Assembly (NCBI GenBank): GCA_020351995.1
Contig: CP070674.1
Location: forward strand, 1,064,467 to 1,128,466
DNA from: Candidatus Zixiibacteriota bacterium
Lineage (GTDB): Bacteria; Zixibacteria; MSB-5A5; GN15; FEB-12
Direction of reading: 5' to 3'
DNA length: 64,000 nt
Made by a program: the position numbers and the translations under genes. Position 1 is the first letter of the stretch. Each line of letters opens with the position of its first letter. The notes beneath the pieces were generated by a model. The model was not told where the DNA came from, ran no database searches, and saw only the letters and a list, made by a program, of their open reading frames with translations. This document shows positions 4,844 through 35,287 of the stretch, in pieces.

Positions 4844-4874
4844 ATTTGTATCCTTTGTCTCAGTTCAATATGCT

Positions 4875-4892
4875 TTGTGAATTTAGTAACAA
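4875..4892. promoter_or_regulatory. Rex-like operator candidate overlapping the hbd-ackA promoter -10
   Basis: TTGTGAATTTAGTAACAA matches TTGTGAA-N4-TTCACAA at 16/18 positions. On the minus strand it overlaps a putative TTGACT-16-TAAATT promoter (plus coordinates 4880-4907). Confidence 0.35.
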
Positions 4893-5155
4893 ATTCATCA
4901 CAGTCAAGTCATTTTGTATCAATTACTCCATTGCTCTAATATATAGTAATAGCAAAAGCTTAGCAAGGTTCCCAAAAGAATGATAATAACTCTGACAGTA
5001 AGGATTTCGGCCAATTTCTATATATATTGAGCACAAAAATCTATTGTTTATAACCCCGGATCGTGCCTCGTTGCGGCCCCCTCGGTGGATTCGTGAGGTG
5101 CGTAACTGTCGATTTTGCCTGCGCTTCCGGGGCTGAGTCGGTGGGCCTTTCAATC

Positions 5156-26516: not shown

Positions 26517-27275
26517 GTGGTCAAACAAACTATTTTCGTAACTCTCAATGCGATTGTAGCATTCGCCATCGGCTTCGGCCTGTGGTACGGCGTCTTCAGA
26601 ACTTCGGAGAGTCCCATCGTTCACTCAATTTATCAGGGTGGTCCGCTGGTTGTGGTCCTGATAATGATCCTGGTCATGTGCCTGGTCTTTACCATTGAGC
26701 GCTATATCTCTCTTTATGGAGTGGCCAAGGGTAAAAGTTCCATACAGGTGTTCTTCAAGAAACTGGTAACGCTGATCCAGAACGATGATTATGACGGCGC
26801 TCTGGCCGCCTGCGATAAGCAGCGCGGAACCACCGCCAACGTGCTCAGAGCGGGCATCGATCGTTATCGCGAAGTGAGGGGAAACAACGCCTACGATGCT
26901 GAGAAGAAGATCGAGCTGACTCAGGCTGCGATCGAAGAAGCCAACGCGCTCGAAGGACCGCTGCTGGAGCGTAACCTGATCGCTCTGTCAACAATCGCTT
27001 CAATTGCGACTATGGTCGGTCTGCTCGGAACCACGATCGGTATGATTCGCGCCTTCGCCGCCACCGGTAACGTCGAGGGCGGTGTTATCGACGCCACCCA
27101 GTTGGCTATCGGTATTTCCGAGGCTCTGGTCAATACCGCTGGCGGACTGCTGTCCGGTATTCTGGGAATCTTCTTCTACAATTTCTTTGTTAATAAGGTA
27201 GACGCCTTCAACTACACCACCGACGAGGCGACCTTTGAAATTATGCAGATTCTGAAGGAAAAAGAAGGAATCTAA
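26517..27275 (+). CDS. exbB: MotA/TolQ/ExbB proton-channel family protein
   Basis: 252 aa. C-terminal conserved region TMVGLLGTTIGMIRAF...ISEALVNTAGGL. Confidence 0.88.
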   Translation: MVKQTIFVTLNAIVAFAIGFGLWYGVFRTSESPIVHSIYQGGPLVVVLIMILVMCLVFTIERYISLYGVAKGKSSIQVFFKKLVTLIQNDDYDGALAACDKQRGTTANVLRAGIDRYREVRGNNAYDAEKKIELTQAAIEEANALEGPLLERNLIALSTIASIATMVGLLGTTIGMIRAFAATGNVEGGVIDATQLAIGISEALVNTAGGLLSGILGIFFYNFFVNKVDAFNYTTDEATFEIMQILKEKEGI

Positions 27276-27278
27276 CCG

Positions 27279-27776
27279 ATGGCGATTAAAAAGAAACGGC
27301 GCATCTCCATCAGAATCGATATGACACCAATGGTGGATATCGCCTTTCTCCTTTTGATATTTTACATGGCGACGACGCAGTTCAAACCACCGGAAGCAAG
27401 GGCGGTCGACCTGCCTCAGTCGCACTCGCAGATCGAATTACCGGATAAGGATATTATAAATATCACGGTGACCAAGTACGATTCGATCTACGTCGATTAC
27501 GTGGAAAAGCGAGAAATTGAAATCGAAGGGCGGTTGGTTGAAACCAAGGCCAGGATTGTCCGCATCGCCGACACGTACAATGTTCATGCTGAAATCAACA
27601 AGGCCAGGGCTAAAAACCTCAGGGCACTGATTGTCATTAAGGCCGATGAAAAAGCCAGTTTCGGGGTCATGCAGGATATTATGCGCTCCATGCAGGAAAA
27701 CCACCTCGAACGCTTTTTGATCATTACTGACCACGAGGTTGAAATTGGCGAAACCACCCAGAGCGAAAGTGCCTGA
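27279..27776 (+). CDS. exbD: ExbD/TolR biopolymer transport protein (copy 1)
   Basis: 165 aa. N-terminal DMTPMVDIAFLLLIFYM TM motif. Confidence 0.88.
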   Translation: MAIKKKRRISIRIDMTPMVDIAFLLLIFYMATTQFKPPEARAVDLPQSHSQIELPDKDIINITVTKYDSIYVDYVEKREIEIEGRLVETKARIVRIADTYNVHAEINKARAKNLRALIVIKADEKASFGVMQDIMRSMQENHLERFLIITDHEVEIGETTQSESA

Positions 27777-27849
27777 CGGGTTTCAATTACTGTTAGCAAA
27801 AGGCCTGTTGTGAAACGTCTATATGTTGAGAGGAGAGTGATATAATAAT

Positions 27850-28506
27850 ATGGCTGGTGAAGTAGCAGAACGGGCACCAAAGGAAGCGAAAAAGGGACTG
27901 CGAAGGCCGAAACGGCGAATAGCGATCCGTATCGATATGACTCCGATGGTAGATATCGCTTTCCTTCTTTTGATTTTCTACATGGTGACCACGGTGTTCT
28001 CGATGCCCCAGGCGATGGAAATCAACCTCCCGCCGCTCGAAGACATGGACAAAACGGTGGATATCAAAGAATCCAACCTCTTGACGCTTCGTGTCGACGG
28101 CGAGGGACGCTTCTGGTGGAACTTACGGCAACCGTCGCCCACTAATATGCCATTACTTCTTCCCTCGGCTCCGCTGAAAACGGAGGATACGATCACCTAC
28201 AGGCTGGACTCGGATACCTTAAGAAACCTGCTTATCGCCCAGAACCGGGCTAACGCGAAACTGAATACGCTTATCCTCATCCACCGTGACGCCAGTTACG
28301 CCGACATGGTCGATATCCTCGATGAGATTGACTTCCTTGAACGATCCTGGAACGCCAGCGTAGCCAGAACGCTTGGGGTCGATGTTGACGAGATCCCGAA
28401 AGATGACAAATTCTCGTATCGTTATGCTATCGGCGACTGGGAAGATCGTGACAATAGGATCATCGAAGCTGCCGCGAATAATGCGGTTGGAAGGGGTGAA
28501 TTATAA
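27850..28506 (+). CDS. exbD: ExbD/TolR biopolymer transport protein (copy 2, long C-terminus)
   Basis: 218 aa with the same DMTPMVDIAFLLLIFYM motif and an extended C-terminal region. Confidence 0.85.
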   Translation: MAGEVAERAPKEAKKGLRRPKRRIAIRIDMTPMVDIAFLLLIFYMVTTVFSMPQAMEINLPPLEDMDKTVDIKESNLLTLRVDGEGRFWWNLRQPSPTNMPLLLPSAPLKTEDTITYRLDSDTLRNLLIAQNRANAKLNTLILIHRDASYADMVDILDEIDFLERSWNASVARTLGVDVDEIPKDDKFSYRYAIGDWEDRDNRIIEAAANNAVGRGEL

Positions 28507-29243
28507 TGCAACTACCAAATGCCCTGTATTCACCTTATGGCGCTTACGAGTTGAAAGCCAGGTACCAGCGTAACTTCGGGCTCGGTACGATTATTACGCT
28601 CGCCTTTGTGCTGCTGATACTGCTCGTAGTCTGGGTCATTACCGCTCTCGGCGAGGAAGATCTGGAGGCTATCGATCTGAGCTCACGTGTAATTAAGACC
28701 GTGGCCGATCTGGGCCCGCCGCCCAGCGTGCAAAAGAGACCGCCCCAGGTAAACGTTAATCAGCCCCAGGTGGCCGCCCCCAAGGTCGGTATTCCCAAAC
28801 CGGTTGCCGATGACGAGGTCATCGATGAGGACGTCGTCCTGGCAACCAGGGACGAGCTGGCCGAAATTGTAGCCCCCGATATTACCGCCGCCTCCGATGG
28901 CGAAGGTGACATCGTGGTCGACATTGCTGACGACGATTATCTGCCGGCTCCGGATGAGTTTTACCCGGTGGAAATCTACCCTGAAATGATTCACCAGACG
29001 ACTCCCGAATATCCCCGTCTGGCCCGCCAGGCGGGCATAACCGGCATCGTTTGGGTTCGGGCCCTGGTTGATAAGGAAGGTAACGTGCGCAAAGCGATGG
29101 TGCACAAAACTTCGGGAACCAAGTCCCTTGATGAGGCGGCTGTTGCCGCGGCCTATGACAACAAGTTCAAGCCCGGAATTCAGAATGGACGCCCTGTCAA
29201 CTGCTGGGTAAGCTACAAGGTAACGTTCGAGCTGGACAATTAA
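28506..29243 (+). CDS. tonB: TonB family energy transducer (copy 1)
   Basis: 245 aa with an N-terminal TM and a Pro-rich spacer. TonB C-terminal domain (YPRLARQAGITGIVWVRALVDKEGNV...KFKPG). Its start overlaps the exbD2 stop (TAATG). Confidence 0.85.
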   Translation: MQLPNALYSPYGAYELKARYQRNFGLGTIITLAFVLLILLVVWVITALGEEDLEAIDLSSRVIKTVADLGPPPSVQKRPPQVNVNQPQVAAPKVGIPKPVADDEVIDEDVVLATRDELAEIVAPDITAASDGEGDIVVDIADDDYLPAPDEFYPVEIYPEMIHQTTPEYPRLARQAGITGIVWVRALVDKEGNVRKAMVHKTSGTKSLDEAAVAAAYDNKFKPGIQNGRPVNCWVSYKVTFELDN

Positions 29244-29275
29244 ACGCCACGCCCGCCGGGCAAATGAGAATTCAG

Positions 29276-29310
29276 GCACCCGAGCCTCATCAGAGTCGGG
29301 TGCTTTTTTT
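29276..29310 (+). terminator. Rho-independent terminator
   Basis: Stem GCACCCGA / TCGGGTGC with a 12-nt loop, followed by TTTTTTT. Confidence 0.8.
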
Positions 29311-29464
29311 ATGCCCGCAAATTATTTCAGGCAAACTCCGGGAAGATTCCTCTCTCCGATTTGTATCTACTTCAGAGATAAATATCCCTTAACGGCGACC
29401 GGAGGCTACAAATTGAACAGGGCAACTTCGACAGGCGTCTAATATATAGAGAGGAGGGATAGTC

Positions 29465-29977
29465 ATGATTGGGGGAAACCCGAACTCCGCGGGCAGCGCC
29501 AATAAACGAAAAGCATCGATCACCAAACGCCGGGCTAATATTCGCCTGGATATGACGCCTATGGTCGATATTGCTTTCCTGCTTCTAATCTTCTACATGG
29601 CTACAACACAGTTCAAACCACCGGATGCCCGGGCGGTCACCCTGCCGGGATCAAAATCACACATCGACGTGCCGGCTAAGGACATAATCACTATTACTGT
29701 CACCAGCGCCGACTCCGTATTTGTTGACTTTGTTGAACTGTCGACGTCAGGTGAACTTGAAAGCTTCGTGACTCGCCGCACCACTGCCGTGAATCTCGAT
29801 TATTTCAGAAAGCAACTGCTGCTCGCGCGATCGATCAACCCAAACGCGTATATCGTTTTCAAGGCCGATCGACAGGCCAGCTTCGGAGTCATGCAGGATA
29901 TCATGAAGATTCTTCAAAATATGGAATGCGCCCGGTTTCTGATCGCCACCGATCTCGAACCGGCACCTGAAAATTAA
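29465..29977 (+). CDS. exbD: ExbD/TolR biopolymer transport protein (copy 3)
   Basis: 170 aa. Shares the identical 25-aa block DMTPMVDIAFLLLIFYMATTQFKPP with copy 1, plus ASFGVMQDIM. SD GAGGAGGG. Confidence 0.88.
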   Translation: MIGGNPNSAGSANKRKASITKRRANIRLDMTPMVDIAFLLLIFYMATTQFKPPDARAVTLPGSKSHIDVPAKDIITITVTSADSVFVDFVELSTSGELESFVTRRTTAVNLDYFRKQLLLARSINPNAYIVFKADRQASFGVMQDIMKILQNMECARFLIATDLEPAPEN

Positions 29978-30073
29978 CACCTTGAATCTATCGTGACCGG
30001 ACATGAAATAGAAAGGCTCAAGTGAGATTTACAAACAACTGGAAAAAACCCACTGAAGGGAGGTGAAGAACAC

Positions 30074-30805
30074 ATGACTATGCAGACATACATGCCGTAC
30101 GGAGCATATGAACTCAAAGCCCGGTATCAATTGAATCTGATGCTGGCGATGCTGATTACCATCTCTACTGTCGGAATACTCCTGTTGACGGCTTACGTCG
30201 CGTCGCTGTTCGGGGCAGACGATATCCTGGTCCCACCCCCCAAGCCGGAGATCGTCAAACCATGGGATATTCCGCCGCCGCCACTGGTAATCCCGCAGAC
30301 GCCCGACATCTCGACCGAGGCCGCAGCGCCTGTAAAACCAAGATACTTTATACCGAATCCCGTTGTCGATGAAGAGGTAATCGATGACAACGTGATTCTG
30401 GCGACAATAGAAGAGCGCAAAGATATCGTGTCGAATCCGTTGGGCGAATTGACGGGGGATGGCCGGGGTATAATTGTCGACACTCACGATATCGGAGGGT
30501 ACATACCTCCCATTTACGAGTTTGTGGCCATGGAAATCTACCCCGAAATGATCTATCGTCACGTACCCGAGTATCCGCGACTTGCCGAACTGGCCGGGAT
30601 TACCGGCGTGGTTCACGTACGCGTGCTGGTGGATGAAAATGGTAACGTAATCGACGCCAGGGTGCAGAAGACTTCCCACACCACGTCTCTCGACGAAGCC
30701 GCGGTCGAGGCAGCGTACAAAAACAAATTCAAACCCGGAATTCAAAACGGTATTGCGGTAAAATGCTGGGTTAGCTATCGCGTCGCCTTCGAACTCGATG
30801 ATTGA
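30074..30805 (+). CDS. tonB: TonB family energy transducer (copy 2)
   Basis: 243 aa, paralogous to copy 1 (YGAYELKARYQ, EIYPEMI, EYPRLA..AGITG, SLDEAAV.AAY.NKFKPGIQNG). Confidence 0.85.
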   Translation: MTMQTYMPYGAYELKARYQLNLMLAMLITISTVGILLLTAYVASLFGADDILVPPPKPEIVKPWDIPPPPLVIPQTPDISTEAAAPVKPRYFIPNPVVDEEVIDDNVILATIEERKDIVSNPLGELTGDGRGIIVDTHDIGGYIPPIYEFVAMEIYPEMIYRHVPEYPRLAELAGITGVVHVRVLVDENGNVIDARVQKTSHTTSLDEAAVEAAYKNKFKPGIQNGIAVKCWVSYRVAFELDD

Positions 30806-31195: not shown

Positions 31196-31224
31196 TTGAC
31201 AACTGCACAAATGTGCAGTATTTT
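31196..31224 (+). promoter_or_regulatory. Consensus promoter with an embedded 18-bp palindromic operator (LexA/SOS-box-like)
   Basis: TTGACA (31196-31201), 17-nt spacer, TATTTT (31219-31224). Positions 31202-31219 read ACTGCACAAATGTGCAGT, with perfect 8-bp arms. Confidence 0.55.
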
Positions 31225-31262
31225 GGTTTTGCCTTTGTAGCATGCCAATAAGGAGCAGAATC

Positions 31263-31475
31263 ATGGCCTGGAATAATATCAACAGCCAGACTCTTTCAGC
31301 GGAACTCATCGAGGACTATCACCATCCCGTCGGAGCCTTTGTCGAAGAAACCGGCAACAACGAGTCTTACACCTACCTGAACGCGGCTACCTGCCCCGAT
31401 TGCGGGGCCGGTATGGTTCGACTGGGGGGTTGCTTTACTTGTATGTCGTGTGGCTTCGCCAGCTGCGGCGGTTGA
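31263..31475 (+). CDS. Small six-Cys zinc-ribbon protein
   Basis: 70 aa from the ATG at 31263; the SD TAAGGAG lies 7 nt upstream and would fall inside the coding region if the tracked 31242 start were used. C-terminus CPDCGAGMVRLGGCFTCMSCGFASCGG. Confidence 0.6.
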   Translation: MAWNNINSQTLSAELIEDYHHPVGAFVEETGNNESYTYLNAATCPDCGAGMVRLGGCFTCMSCGFASCGG

Positions 31476-31521
31476 CTGTAATCGCGGCACAGATCTGTGT
31501 CAAATAGGGGAAGGATTCAAA

Positions 31522-34221
31522 ATGCGTTTGAGTGAACTGGAAAAATGGGGGATACCATCCCGCGTTATTCAACTATGGCGGGAACGACAGGGTGAAACTC
31601 TCCTGCCCATACAGGACCGGGCCGTGCGCCGGAACCTGTTGGGGAAACCGATGCAGGGACAGGAGCATACCTCGGTACGAATGGTTATATCCGCGCCAAC
31701 CTCTTCAGGAAAATCTTTCTGCGCGGAGATGGCCGCCGTCAGGGCTCTCACGAGCCGTGAGAAAACCGTCATGCTTTTTCCGCTAAAATCCCTGGCCGAG
31801 CAAAATTACAGCCTGTTCAATCAAACCTACGGACACCTCGGCGTCAGGTGCCTTATTGTTACCGGTGATCACCCGGAAAATGATGACGCCTTCGCCCGGG
31901 GCCATTTCCAGATCGCCGTGGCCATCTATGAAAAATTCGACTCACTGCTTACAACCTCGCTGGACGCTCTTAAGAACATTGGCCTGATCGTTGTTGATGA
32001 AATCCAGACTATCGGCGAACCGAGAAGAGGAGCCGTTCTGGAACGCTTGCTCACAAAGGTACGAGCGTCCGAATACCAACCTGGCATAATCGGCCTGTCA
32101 GCGGTTATTGGCGATGAAGCCGGATCAGCGGGAAAGCTGGCCCAATGGCTGGGAGCTACCCTGGTCGAAGAGTGCAGCCGTCCCGTCGAGCTTATGAGGG
32201 GAGTGGCTACCGAAGGGACTTATTACTATCGCACCTTCAATAATGGTTTCGATGGAAACGAACCGTTCGCCGATTCGGACCACACCGAAACCTCGTTCGA
32301 CAAATTCATCAAGCAGATAAAGGACACCGAAAATTCCACCTTGATCTTCCTCAAATCCCGCATGGATACCGTCGACGCCGCCTTCAAACTGGCTGCTTCG
32401 GTCAAATGGCCCGAGGCCAAGAAAGCCCTGTCTGAACTCGAGGGAGAGGAGCCCTCGTTTCTTATCCGCTCGCTGCGGCAGGCCCTCAGCCGGGGTGTGG
32501 CTTTTCACAATTCTGACCTGTCCCCAGAGCAACGATTGATTGTTGAGCAAGCCTTTCTCGAAAAAGAGATTAAAGCTCTTTTCTCAACTACTACTTTAGC
32601 TATGGGAGTCAACCTTTCGGCCGATACAGTCTACCTCGAAACAGTCAAATACACTTCTGGAAAGTACGATCGAAGGCCGTCGCTCGAGCCGGTGAGCCGC
32701 TCCGAGTTTGAGAACATGTCCGGCCGCGCCGGACGGCTCACTGGTGACAGGGAAACCTGCCCGGCCGGGCGAGCCATCATTCTGGCCGAAAATAAATTTG
32801 ACAGAGACATACTGTGGGATACCTATATCGCCGGCATCAACACTAAGCCGCTTAAATCCGCCTTCAAGAGTATGCCTCTCGAAGATTGGCTGCTGGATAT
32901 CATAGTCAGTGGCCTTGCTTCCAATAGCGACAGTATTGAAAGTGTCTATGCTCACTCGTTCCGATACCACCTTAATCAAGATGGACTATCCGATGACGTC
33001 ACCGCTGCTCTACAGAGGTTGACCGCTGACGGATTCATCGAGAATAGCCCCGAAGTTAAACCCACTGTATTCGGTTTGGCCACGACCAGAACCGGTCTTT
33101 CCGTGAAGCAGGCGACACACTACCGGAATCAACTGCGGCAGGGTTACCCAAACAACTCCGTTGCATGGGTCGCCTTGGCGCTTAGCGGACCTGATTGGGA
33201 TACTCCCCCCGCCATGTTGAGCCGCCTTGAACAGACCCGCAACACTCCGCTGAGAATGCTCTATCAATGCTATCACCACTTGCTTGACGAGGCCGCTCTG
33301 TTGATTGGAAGAGGGGGAGACCGGAAACCTCTGGCATACCGCCAGACCGCTTCGCTTAAAGCTCTGTTCCTGCTTGAACGCTGGCGGAATCTGGTACCGG
33401 TTCAGCAACTGGAAGAAACTTTTCAAATGCACCTGGGCCAGATCATGCATCTCGGGGAAACTGTCGGCCATCTGGTAGCGGCCATTGCCGAACTAATACA
33501 GTCGAGCGAAGCATCATCGAGCCTTCCGTCGGAACTCAGACAACTGGCCTTCAGCCTCAGGCACGGCATACCAGCGGACCTCAAACCGATACACGACTAT
33601 CTGGGCGAACTGCTCAGCCGCCACGACTTCGCTGCCCTGCACCGAGCCGGTATCTGCTCTCTTCGACAGTTCTGTGAGTTGGATAGTGATGGCCTGTTGG
33701 CGGTATTTCGTGATACTACTAAGTTGAAGAAAATAAATGAGAAACAAGAACAACTTAAAGAGGAGCTTGATATGCAAACCAGATGGACGGTGGCGGAAAA
33801 CCACCATGAAGCAATCAGAACGTCAACTCTTGGCTCGTTGGAGTCAATCGAGGTCGACGGCAGCTATGAAAAGGAGAGATACCTTGTCAGAATCAACGGT
33901 TTCCCGGTTCGCTTGACCGGCAAGTCGTTCAAGTATTTCACCAAGCTGGCCTGGTCGAGGCTCAACCGCGACTCGGGCTGGATTTACAAAGAGGATATCG
34001 AGATCGGTTTCAATCAGGCCCGGTATCTTTACCGCATGAAGGGGGAGATCAACGCCAGTCTGAATATGTCCTGGCCGGTGGTTGAGAACAATCGGCTGGG
34101 TTATTACCGGCTCGATGTTGACCCGTCTAAGATACGCCTGAATGAAAGCAACCTGCGAAACCACCCCGATTACGAAGTCCGGTCGATGTTCTTGAATAAA
34201 ACGGCCGAACCCGTCAACTAG
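31522..34221 (+). CDS. Ski2/Hel308-like superfamily-2 DNA helicase with extra C-terminal winged-helix-like domain
   Basis: 899 aa from the ATG at 31522 (SD GGAAGGA). Q-motif LLPIQ, motif I APTSSGKS (31693-31716), motif II DEIQ (31996-32007), STTTLAMGVNL and MSGRAGR. The tail at 33841-34218 resembles an OmpR/PhoB-type wHTH. Confidence 0.8.
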   Translation: MRLSELEKWGIPSRVIQLWRERQGETLLPIQDRAVRRNLLGKPMQGQEHTSVRMVISAPTSSGKSFCAEMAAVRALTSREKTVMLFPLKSLAEQNYSLFNQTYGHLGVRCLIVTGDHPENDDAFARGHFQIAVAIYEKFDSLLTTSLDALKNIGLIVVDEIQTIGEPRRGAVLERLLTKVRASEYQPGIIGLSAVIGDEAGSAGKLAQWLGATLVEECSRPVELMRGVATEGTYYYRTFNNGFDGNEPFADSDHTETSFDKFIKQIKDTENSTLIFLKSRMDTVDAAFKLAASVKWPEAKKALSELEGEEPSFLIRSLRQALSRGVAFHNSDLSPEQRLIVEQAFLEKEIKALFSTTTLAMGVNLSADTVYLETVKYTSGKYDRRPSLEPVSRSEFENMSGRAGRLTGDRETCPAGRAIILAENKFDRDILWDTYIAGINTKPLKSAFKSMPLEDWLLDIIVSGLASNSDSIESVYAHSFRYHLNQDGLSDDVTAALQRLTADGFIENSPEVKPTVFGLATTRTGLSVKQATHYRNQLRQGYPNNSVAWVALALSGPDWDTPPAMLSRLEQTRNTPLRMLYQCYHHLLDEAALLIGRGGDRKPLAYRQTASLKALFLLERWRNLVPVQQLEETFQMHLGQIMHLGETVGHLVAAIAELIQSSEASSSLPSELRQLAFSLRHGIPADLKPIHDYLGELLSRHDFAALHRAGICSLRQFCELDSDGLLAVFRDTTKLKKINEKQEQLKEELDMQTRWTVAENHHEAIRTSTLGSLESIEVDGSYEKERYLVRINGFPVRLTGKSFKYFTKLAWSRLNRDSGWIYKEDIEIGFNQARYLYRMKGEINASLNMSWPVVENNRLGYYRLDVDPSKIRLNESNLRNHPDYEVRSMFLNKTAEPVN

Positions 34222-34248
34222 GCTTACAGGCTCGGTAGTTTTCCGTAG

Positions 34249-34291
34249 GGCAGAACCCGGTAGTGGTTCTGCCGAAAAGTCTTTTCTTTTT
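34249..34291 (+). terminator. Rho-independent terminator after the helicase
   Basis: 9-bp stem GGCAGAACC / GGTTCTGCC with a 7-nt loop and a T-rich tail. A second hairpin GGCAGGAG / CTCCTGCC lies at 34300-34325. Confidence 0.7.
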
Positions 34292-34513
34292 GACTGTAAG
34301 GCAGGAGCCGTCTTCGACTCCTGCCACACAACTTGACAAACCCCGCTGTATCTGCGTCATTCAATTAGGGGCTGATAAGTGGGAGGACATGTATGCACCT
34401 GCAAAGAATCTGTTTTCTAGTCCTGATGACGGTCTCGCATAGTAAAGATTCCGGGAACAGATTATCTGTAAGGCAGACCTACGAAGACTGATACCATAGG
34501 AGGAATCACATTG

Positions 34514-35287
34514 ATGAAGTACGTCCTATACTTCTCACTGGGTTTGTGGGTATTATCGTTCTGTTCATACGCGGAGGCACAGGGTCCAGCGGGCGATGGA
34601 CAATCGCACACCGTTGAGGACGCTGGTCAGGCAGTTAATTTGGCACTACTGTACACTGGTCTTGACGAGTATGAAAACTTGCTATTTCCACCTGCGGATG
34701 AGATAACTGAGCGGACAACCGTTCGAGCATTTATTCTAACTGATCTGGCCGACAGTGTGAACGGTAGAGACGTTTGGCAGGTATCGTTTAACAACCTGCG
34801 CTTGAGCACCGACGGCATTGTAATTCAGGATTCTGAAGATGCCTTCGACGTCGATGTGACAATTGACTGTGCTACTGGAGCCCTTATTCAGATCCGATCA
34901 AAGAACCGGGTGGCTGGCAAGTTACCCCGGGCTGTTATCGAACAGTTCGACGAGGAAGCCAGACGCAACTCAGCGTTCCGCCAAACCTTTCACGGATTTC
35001 CAGATCAGAAACCCAAGATCTCTCTTCTAGAGGCAATGACTCTGACAATATGCGGCACGTTTCGTGACCATCTGGTTTTAGCGTATTATGTATTGGAATC
35101 TCATACGTTTAGGGGAAGACACCCCGTCACTCCAGTATGGGCAATTCAGTGTATGAGCGCAGATACGATCGTCCATGAAGAGCAAAACTCGGGAGCGCGG
35201 ACAAAGCTACGGGGGAGCCGAAGCGTGATTGACGCCCTTAAGGGTGAAGTTCTACTGGACTTATGGTGGCATGATGGCTCCAATTGA
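34514..35287 (+). CDS. Hypothetical secreted protein
   Basis: About 257 aa. The SD AGGAGGA precedes the ATG at 34514. Signal peptide LGLWVLSFCSYAEAQ. I see no recognisable motifs. Confidence 0.55.
   Translation: MKYVLYFSLGLWVLSFCSYAEAQGPAGDGQSHTVEDAGQAVNLALLYTGLDEYENLLFPPADEITERTTVRAFILTDLADSVNGRDVWQVSFNNLRLSTDGIVIQDSEDAFDVDVTIDCATGALIQIRSKNRVAGKLPRAVIEQFDEEARRNSAFRQTFHGFPDQKPKISLLEAMTLTICGTFRDHLVLAYYVLESHTFRGRHPVTPVWAIQCMSADTIVHEEQNSGARTKLRGSRSVIDALKGEVLLDLWWHDGSN

Follow-up and report, generated by a model that had tools for sequence, protein, structure and literature searches.

MrfA, a helicase with a Cys4 zinc module, functions in mitomycin repair. Helicases of the Hel308 type, in contrast to the locus described here, have been stated to be absent from bacteria (PMC7776575). 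The cysteine-rich domain (CRD) of the ribonucleotide reductase (RNR) NrdJ ends in six fully conserved cysteines, which in Stackebrandtia nassauensis NrdJd are C920/923/933/936/939/945 with the spacing x2-x9-x2-x2-x5 (PMC5704485); zinc is bound by this array, through which electrons reach the active site (PMC5704485, Loderer et al.). Enzymes of the NrdJa+b subclass have their CRD encoded by a gene of its own, and a separately expressed CRD failed to restore RNR activity (PMC5704485). Here, we describe a pair of genes from Candidatus Zixiibacteriota (contig CP070674.1), encoding a zinc-ribbon miniprotein and a Hel308-type helicase, that lies in a 64-kb stretch of DNA, referred to below as the window, within which all positions are given. 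We consider it probable that the two genes form a LexA-repressed SOS operon that is vertically inherited as part of the core of Zixibacteria and some related uncultured lineages, in which the miniprotein is an accessory to the helicase.

Among the 47 genes called in the window, a 70-amino-acid (aa) open reading frame (ORF) and an 899-aa helicase ORF lie on the plus strand, separated by a gap of 46 nt, and share one promoter. This arrangement had been proposed in a sequence-only reading of the same DNA and was confirmed; the helicase ORF of that reading also stood, with its start codon corrected (the ATG is at 31522, not 31524). A single sigma-70-like promoter precedes the pair and a GC-rich, terminator-like hairpin lies just 3′ of the helicase stop codon, and the two genes therefore read as a two-gene operon. 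The automated scan did not list the hairpin, because its T-run starts 6 nt past the stem. Database entries identical at 100% are labeled only "DEAD/DEAH box helicase" for the larger product and "hypothetical protein [Candidatus Zixiibacteriota]" for the smaller. The features of the operon are as follows.

31196..31224, plus strand: core promoter, with −35 TTGACA at 31196-31201, a 17-nt spacer, and −10 TATTTT at 31219-31224; 10/12 matches in the promoter scan
31203..31218, plus strand: operator CTGCACAAATGTGCAG, 16 bp, filling the promoter spacer; probable LexA (SOS) box, with one occurrence in the window
31263..31475, plus strand: gene for the zinc-ribbon miniprotein, 70 aa, ORF confirmed; ribosome-binding site (RBS) AAGGAG at 31250-31255
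31392..31469, plus strand: six-cysteine array, aa 44-69, C-x2-C-x9-C-x2-C-x2-C-x4-C, ending one residue short of the C terminus
31522..34221, plus strand: gene for the Hel308-type superfamily 2 (SF2) helicase, 899 aa; RBS GGGGAAGGA at 31507-31515
31522..33768, plus strand: helicase body, aa 1-749, with RecA1, RecA2, winged-helix, ratchet, and helix-hairpin-helix (HhH) domains, placed by Hel308-fold superposition and phmmer
33769..33831, plus strand: predicted disordered linker, aa 750-770, with a predicted local distance difference test score (pLDDT) of ∼33-36 in the full-length model; sequence and length vary among homologues
33847..34194, plus strand: predicted C-terminal OmpR/PhoB-like winged-helix domain, aa 776-891, placed by fold model, Foldseek, and conservation
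34248..34291, plus strand: terminator-like hairpin GGGCAGAACC-N7-GGTTCTGCC with a T-rich run after it, identified by inspecting the sequence

Every helicase motif quoted in the sequence-only reading was found in the 899-aa ORF: LLPIQ at aa 27-31, APTSSGKS at 58-65, DEIQ at 159-162, STTTLAMGVNL at 355-365, and MSGRAGR at 399-405. The SF2 motifs Q, I, Ia, II, III, IV, V, and VI are all readable, with an exception in motif II, which is DEIQ and not DExH; its Q162 is kept in at least 90% of homologues. Pfam searches of the helicase returned DEAD (2e-22), Helicase_C (3.2e-7), DEXQc_Suv3 (1e-8), and a weak match to the archaeal "Helicase_dom4," and the NCBIfam Hel308 models span aa 4-753 with an E value of 5.6e-81. 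When the protein was compared with PDB sequences by phmmer, Pyrococcus Hjm was the best match (2zj2, 1e-51), with helicase aa 12-727 aligned to Hjm residues 9-683; Hel308 of Archaeoglobus and Sulfolobus came next (3e-50), and ASCC3, Brr2, POLQ, and Hachiman HamB (8vx9, 1.5e-16) followed. Among Lhr-type models, the best matches were at 2e-8 (PRK13767) and 3e-4 (PRK09751).

Structural modeling agreed with these searches. The full-length AlphaFold model, built with 62 homologues, had a pLDDT of 86.1 and a predicted template modeling (pTM) score of 0.77. Foldseek matched it to the Hjm/Hel308 structures 2zj8, 2p6r, 2va8, and 9b15 with E values down to 3e-40 and target template modeling (TM) scores of 0.83-0.89, and superposition on Hjm/Hel308 aligned ∼750 columns at a root mean square deviation of 3.5-4.4 Å; the POLQ helicase domain and then Brr2 were the next closest. 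The model shows all five domains of Hel308, among them the winged helix (domain 3), the ratchet (domain 4), and the HhH (domain 5), and by it the 899-aa protein is predicted to be a true five-domain helicase of the Hel308/Hjm fold. The earlier assignment to the Hel308 type, as opposed to RecQ, UvrD, or DEAD-box helicases, is thus borne out by the NCBIfam, Hjm, and Foldseek results (target TM 0.87 for the last). An invariant Cys67 beside the P-loop was weighed as a redox target and given little weight; the corresponding position in archaeal Hel308 is a buried Leu or Ile.

We examined 80 genome loci from 80 species, 72 of which have at least 450 nt of upstream DNA. The miniprotein gene lies directly upstream of the helicase gene, on the same strand, in 71 of these 72, and the small ORF is thus syntenic with this helicase. 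It is also present in distant lineages (L086, L089, L099, and L131) whose helicases are only ∼34% identical, and in L113. All six cysteines are 100% conserved in 77 orthologues, with the consensus NAxTCPDCGxGMVRLGxCFSCPxCGFxSC; the protein ends 1 to 3 residues past the last cysteine, and its N-terminal half is variable and acidic. The interval between the second and third cysteines had been read as N10, and this needs amending, as it holds nine residues, not ten (CPDC-x9-CFTCMSC-x4-C). The copy in L089 is longer and more cysteine rich, and its locus has no recognizable box.

A relationship that the sequence-only reading had not mentioned emerged for this zinc ribbon. Miniprotein aa 27-69 match the last 43 positions of the NCBIfam model for B12-dependent RNR, NF006417 (E value, 2.1e-7), and aa 39-69 match the C terminus of the 199-position PHROGs family phrog_23565, "ribonucleotide reductase" (E value, 3.4e-6). 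By these profile comparisons the miniprotein, as a protein on its own, matches the terminal six-cysteine zinc finger of class II RNRs. Neither the window region nor any of the 80 examined loci has an RNR gene near the operon. A PDB sequence search with the miniprotein gave only generic zinc ribbons (e.g., RpoM, 0.043); a word-limited homologue search, in which 28 candidates were scored, gave only short, 70- to 100-aa proteins of the Zixibacteria type and did not extend as far as NrdJ; and no natural fusion of the zinc ribbon to the helicase occurred among 431 proteins. The tight co-occurrence with the helicase, maintained even at ∼34% helicase identity, favors a partner role for the miniprotein.

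The operator in the promoter spacer was likewise conserved. In essentially all Zixibacteria loci with upstream DNA, CTGCACAAATGTGCAG occurs once per locus and always upstream of the operon. The 78 aligned promoter sequences follow the pattern cTTGACAa-operator-TATnnT, with TTGACA at 94-98% per position and the core positions at 94-100%. Operator variants include GGGCAC...GTGCAG and, in L051, L053, and L054, CTGAACA(A/T)ATGTTCAG, which holds GAAC-N4-GTTC and resembles the Gram-positive LexA core. Scanning metagenome contigs for the 16-mer CTGCACAAATGTGCAG returned 120 stretches, among which the box lay, in the same TTGAC...TA context, directly upstream of four lexA genes (L106, L112, L121, and L136) whose products carry PF01726 and PF00717. 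The same boxed promoter also precedes an IMS (Y-family) polymerase gene (L120), several DUF6504 genes, and further operons of the zinc-ribbon and helicase type. Such a pairing, in which a repressor gene has its own operator and a translesion polymerase gene shares it, is what marks a LexA regulon. Because the same boxed promoter stands before lexA, the Y-family polymerase gene, and the DUF6504 genes, CTGCACAAATGTGCAG is very probably a LexA box, and the operon is very probably switched on by DNA damage. The damage-inducible control suspected earlier is therefore supported both by the phylum-wide conservation of the palindrome and by the shared promoter geometry.

Several further observations concern this promoter. 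The DUF6504 proteins are 84-98 aa long, end in ...DLVWWLDSVTLEG, and stand behind the boxed promoter on GC-rich contigs (L116, L135, L154, L180, L189, L120, L140, and L150); DUF6504 is apparently an uncharacterized SOS gene. Two distant relatives have a boxed promoter without a zinc-ribbon gene, L088 with the degenerate box ACTGCTCAAATGGGCAGT (4880-4905) and L084 with the box GGCACAAATGTGCAC (4864-4882). In roughly half of the orthologous promoters (L002-L080; e.g., L009, L012, and L059), the sequence (G/A)(C/T)CGATAA lies 8-9 nt past the −10 element, approximately at the transcription start; it is absent at that position in the window, where the similar GCCAATAA is found further downstream, at 31245-31252, just before the RBS. 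The LexA box of Fibrobacter succinogenes is TGCNCN4GTGCA, a pattern that CTGCACAAATGTGCAG matches. An Escherichia coli-type ACTG-N10-CAGT box was rejected as too loose, with 3 matches in the window against 0.5 expected. Many of the metagenome matches to the 16-mer were discarded as chance occurrences in GC-rich hairpin or terminator contexts of gut contigs. Nine human-gut and other metagenome contigs (L103, L124, L125, L130, L160, L187, L190, L192, and L194) carry an identical longer hairpin, AAAAAAGCGCCT-CTGCACAAATGTGCAG-GGGCGCTGCT, which has the appearance of a conserved terminator or repeat with no relation to the SOS box.

The helicase departs from the Hel308 plan at its C terminus: when 20 or 62 homologues with 51-64% overall identity are aligned, the last ∼125 aa are its best-conserved stretch. 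Two motifs in this tail are near invariant, GFNQARYLYRMK, which maps to the recognition helix of the model, and ENNRLGYYRL, which maps to the wing. A separate model of aa 761-899 had a pLDDT of 87.6 and a pTM of 0.83, with the element order three strands, α1, α2, α3, β-hairpin, and two short helices. When it was searched against PDB with Foldseek, about 45 of the top 50 matches were OmpR/PhoB-family DNA-binding domains (BaeR, VicR, CosR, GlnR, CadC, YycF, and PhoB). Pfam, NCBIfam, and PHROGs gave no family match for this domain or for eight of its stand-alone homologues. We conclude that the tail has, as modeled, an OmpR/PhoB-like winged-helix fold yet forms a separate, undescribed sequence family. 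Its basic recognition helix, with the invariant residues R834, R838, and K840, and its wing hint at sequence-specific DNA binding, which is suggestive only. An EpiP match (0.019, domain profile against PDB sequences) was judged spurious.

An exhaustive phmmer search with the tail domain over 1.84 billion representative proteins gave 271 clusters, in which it occurs as the C terminus of helicases (835-1075 aa), as an ORF of its own directly behind a helicase that does not have it (L081), and as free-standing proteins of 110-160 aa. Given this three-way occurrence, the winged-helix domain is an independent module. In L081 (1-989) it forms its own ORF 75 nt after the helicase, which ends before it, and in another case the helicase entry is split into pieces of 537 and 325 aa (MBK7091516/MBK7091517; P0271/P0272); both splits could be natural domain fission or frameshifts. 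Stand-alone copies keep company with genes for recombination and replication: one (L082, 7001-7390) lies in a phage-like region beside a Rad52-like gene (weak Pfam match), and others are on three viral contigs (L210, 4989-5369; L211; and L212), the L210 copy adjoining RusA-like and DNA methyltransferase-like ORFs, assigned by eye from translations.

The surroundings of the operon are those of a chromosomal core gene pair. Across loci the recurrent order is ExbB-ExbD-ExbD-TonB, the zinc-ribbon and helicase genes, Lon, and then MiaB. Of the 80 loci, 72 have a detected Lon gene, which mostly follows the helicase gene directly at a distance of 130-300 nt, and 39 have TonB upstream. There is one helicase copy per genome, at 43-64% identity, which gives it the look of vertical descent, and GC content is flat (0.47-0.56). 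No nuclease, methylase, or HamA/DUF1837 gene lies near the operon, whose neighbors are ExbB/ExbD/TonB upstream and Lon/MiaB downstream, and the PADLOC HamB models match only core segments of the helicase (E value, 1e-29). The conserved setting between ExbBD-TonB and Lon, the flat GC content, and the lack of a nuclease point to a core repair gene pair and not to a defense island, in agreement with the earlier preference for repair over phage defense. In the window, the upstream cluster (26517-30805) reads ExbB, ExbD, ExbD, TonB, ExbD, TonB, with the ExbD-TonB pair duplicated, and this arrangement is widely conserved beside the operon in Zixibacteria. Between the helicase gene and Lon lies a 258-aa ORF (34511-35287) with a signal-peptide-like N terminus; it had no Pfam, NCBIfam, or PADLOC match and no homologue in any of the 80 loci, and it looks like a lineage-specific insertion.

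We propose the following account of how the operon may work. In the undamaged cell, a LexA dimer would occupy the 16-bp palindrome between the −35 and −10 elements and block RNA polymerase, and DNA damage would lead to transcription of the operon. By analogy with archaeal Hel308 and metazoan HELQ/POLQ, the helicase would be a Hel308/Hjm-type 3′-to-5′ DNA helicase that loads where stalled forks or D-loops are single stranded and unwinds the lagging or invading strand, allowing restart or crosslink repair. The winged helix, tethered by a flexible linker of ∼20 residues, would most likely hold duplex DNA or a conserved partner near the junction and so may supply the substrate targeting that archaeal Hel308 gets from partner proteins. 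The miniprotein is most likely a zinc-ribbon accessory subunit of the helicase, which could help in loading, serve as an adaptor, or work as a thiol/zinc switch. A bolder version, to which we give a slim chance, makes the miniprotein a redox-active shuttle of the NrdJ type that couples SOS to the thiol/zinc state, either by switching Hel308 or by bridging to class II RNR and so coordinating fork repair with deoxynucleoside triphosphate (dNTP) supply, while the OmpR-like domain reads a specific DNA sequence and makes the enzyme a sequence-targeted repair helicase.

Several results weigh against the proposal of an SOS-controlled Hel308 helicase with a zinc-ribbon partner. The curated NCBIfam equivalog cutoffs were missed by a wide margin (PRK02362, 273 versus 887 bits; helicase_Hel308, 202 versus 1200), and judged by its sequence the helicase is a divergent Hel308 relative, not an equivalog. 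Because motif II is DEIQ, not DExH, and the bit scores fall far under these cutoffs, its activity could differ from that of archaeal Hel308. The Pfam part of the earlier claim of an OmpR-type tail failed, as aa 774-899 matched no family even at E values of <1, while the fold part held (pLDDT of 87.6 and OmpR/PhoB topology). The Foldseek E values of the tail were only 0.01-0.7 (probability up to 0.99), so that the match is one of fold alone, and the domain profile gave marginal ArlR (0.11) and CarR matches among PDB sequences. No lexA gene is among the 47 genes called in the window. The box-bearing lexA genes are nearest to a Candidatus Eisenbacteria entry, at 70% identity; no lexA was recovered from a contig assigned to Zixibacteria, and a search seeded with the L121 LexA gave Eisenbacteria-like LexA. 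Because these genes are nearest to Eisenbacteria and not Zixibacteria, LexA binding in this genome is something we infer. In a few lineages (L023, L067, L084, and L088), the helicase has the operator and lacks the miniprotein, and contact between miniprotein and helicase is likewise inferred.

Other explanations share some of this evidence. The operon could be an antiphage defense module, Hachiman-like or built on another helicase, with the zinc ribbon or the winged helix as its sensor. The PADLOC HamB match, the place of HamB 8vx9 among the PDB matches, and the stand-alone winged-helix copies in phage-like regions (L082 and L210) are what such a module would lead one to expect; the HamB matches, however, cover the generic RecA-like core only, whereas the Hel308 models span aa 4-753, and a single copy per genome in an identical chromosomal neighborhood across the whole phylum, with flat GC content, no HamA/DUF1837, nuclease, or methylase nearby, and a promoter common to lexA and the Y-family polymerase gene, leaves defense extremely unlikely. 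A different question is who reads the palindrome. If the helicase's own winged-helix tail or another dedicated repressor did so, the operon would be autoregulated and not damage induced; operator and winged-helix domain are both unusually invariant in one and the same group of genomes, domains of the OmpR type recognize sequences, and no box-bearing lexA was recovered from Zixibacteria. We regard autoregulation as very unlikely all the same, as the identical operator and geometry precede lexA on four independent contigs, a hallmark of LexA autoregulation, and also precede the IMS polymerase gene. Moreover, direct repeats are the usual targets of OmpR/PhoB domains, and this site is instead an inverted repeat of the LexA/Cheo-box type, its orthologous variants hold GAAC-N4-GTTC, and the operator is kept where the winged helix is a separate ORF.

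The substrate and the partner can be questioned in the same manner. A helicase that acts on RNA, with a part in quality control of ribosomes or RNA as for Ski2, SLH1, ASCC3, or Brr2 and a functional tie to Lon and MiaB, would fit the PDB sequence matches to ASCC3, Brr2, SLH1, Ski2, and Mtr4 (1e-34 to 1e-17), the conserved Lon protease gene downstream, and motif II, where DEIQ is as in Suv3-type RNA helicases (Pfam DEXQc_Suv3, 1e-8). In both sequence and fold, nevertheless, the closest matches are the DNA helicases Hjm/Hel308 and POLQ, ratchet and HhH domains included; the promoter carries an SOS-type box common to lexA and the translesion polymerase gene; and in the window a terminator-like hairpin and the lineage-specific 258-aa gene separate the helicase gene from Lon. 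An RNA role is distinctly unlikely. It is also unlikely, if not to the same degree, that the miniprotein is merely cotranscribed and has an SOS function of its own, either as a class II RNR reductant or regulatory tail that raises dNTP supply or as an SOS checkpoint or division inhibitor. Its cysteine array has the spacing of the C-terminal zinc finger of NrdJ and, like it, stands at the end of the protein, with profile hidden Markov model matches of 2.1e-7 and 3.4e-6; the NrdJ array delivers electrons to the active site and the NrdJa+b CRD is a separate gene (PMC5704485); and some lineages have the helicase without the miniprotein. Against this, the 150- to 220-aa body of the NrdJ CRD is missing, no RNR gene adjoins the operon in any locus examined, the word-limited search of 28 candidates gave 70- to 100-aa proteins only, and co-occurrence with the helicase in 71 of 72 loci reaches lineages at ∼34% helicase identity; in addition, RNR activity was not regained when a CRD was expressed separately (PMC5704485).

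Literature searches on bacterial Hel308 and SOS, on Zixibacteria and LexA, on LexA and Ski2-like helicases, and on the Fibrobacter LexA motif found nothing relevant, and no paper was found on this Hel308/zinc-ribbon system. What is new here is the domain architecture, the partner, and the bacterial SOS wiring of a Hel308 helicase whose core activity is probably conventional. A Hel308 fold as a core gene of a whole bacterial phylum, apparently wired to SOS, stands against the textbook archaeal and metazoan distribution (PMC7776575), and the pair would offer a compact two-protein bacterial system in which to study fork processing of the Hel308/HELQ type. The analysis also reveals a winged-helix family outside Pfam and PHROGs that is carried by phages too, presents the six-cysteine zinc finger of class II RNRs as an independent module outside RNR, and supplies a predicted LexA operator for Zixibacteria and neighboring uncultured lineages. 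Were the combination of redox shuttle and sequence-targeted helicase true, it would amount to an SOS effector module of a new kind.

Compared with described systems, the locus shares parts with several. Hachiman HamB, Lhr, and MrfA are likewise bacterial SF2 helicases with Hel308-like accessory domains; unlike Hachiman HamA-HamB, the operon has no HamA partner and no defense-island context, and its likeness to HamB is limited to the helicase core, while in contrast to MrfA, with its Cys4 zinc module, the operon has its zinc module in a separate, NrdJ-type protein. The miniprotein has the same six cysteines at the extreme C terminus as the zinc finger of the NrdJ CRD (NrdJd and NrdJb), with the spacing x2-x9-x2-x2-x4/5, yet it comprises only the terminal ∼30 aa without the 150- to 220-aa CRD body, and its neighbor is a helicase, not an RNR. 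The modeled tail shares with the OmpR/PhoB effector domain (PhoB 1gxp, BaeR 4b09, and VicR 2hwv; Trans_reg_C PF00486) its topology, the basic recognition helix, the N-terminal three-stranded sheet, and a C-terminal hairpin wing ending in G-Y-x-L; it differs in having no Pfam match, in being joined to a helicase and not to a receiver domain, and in two extra C-terminal helices. Finally, archaeal Hel308/Hjm (2zj8, 2p6r, and 2va8) and the HELQ/POLQ helicase domains have the same SF2 motif set and the same five-domain ring, and presumably the same role at damaged forks. The present helicase, in contrast to archaeal Hel308/Hjm, is bacterial, is 23-26% identical, and has DEIQ as motif II, and to the shared plan it adds a tethered OmpR-like winged helix, an upstream zinc-ribbon gene, and apparent LexA-type control.

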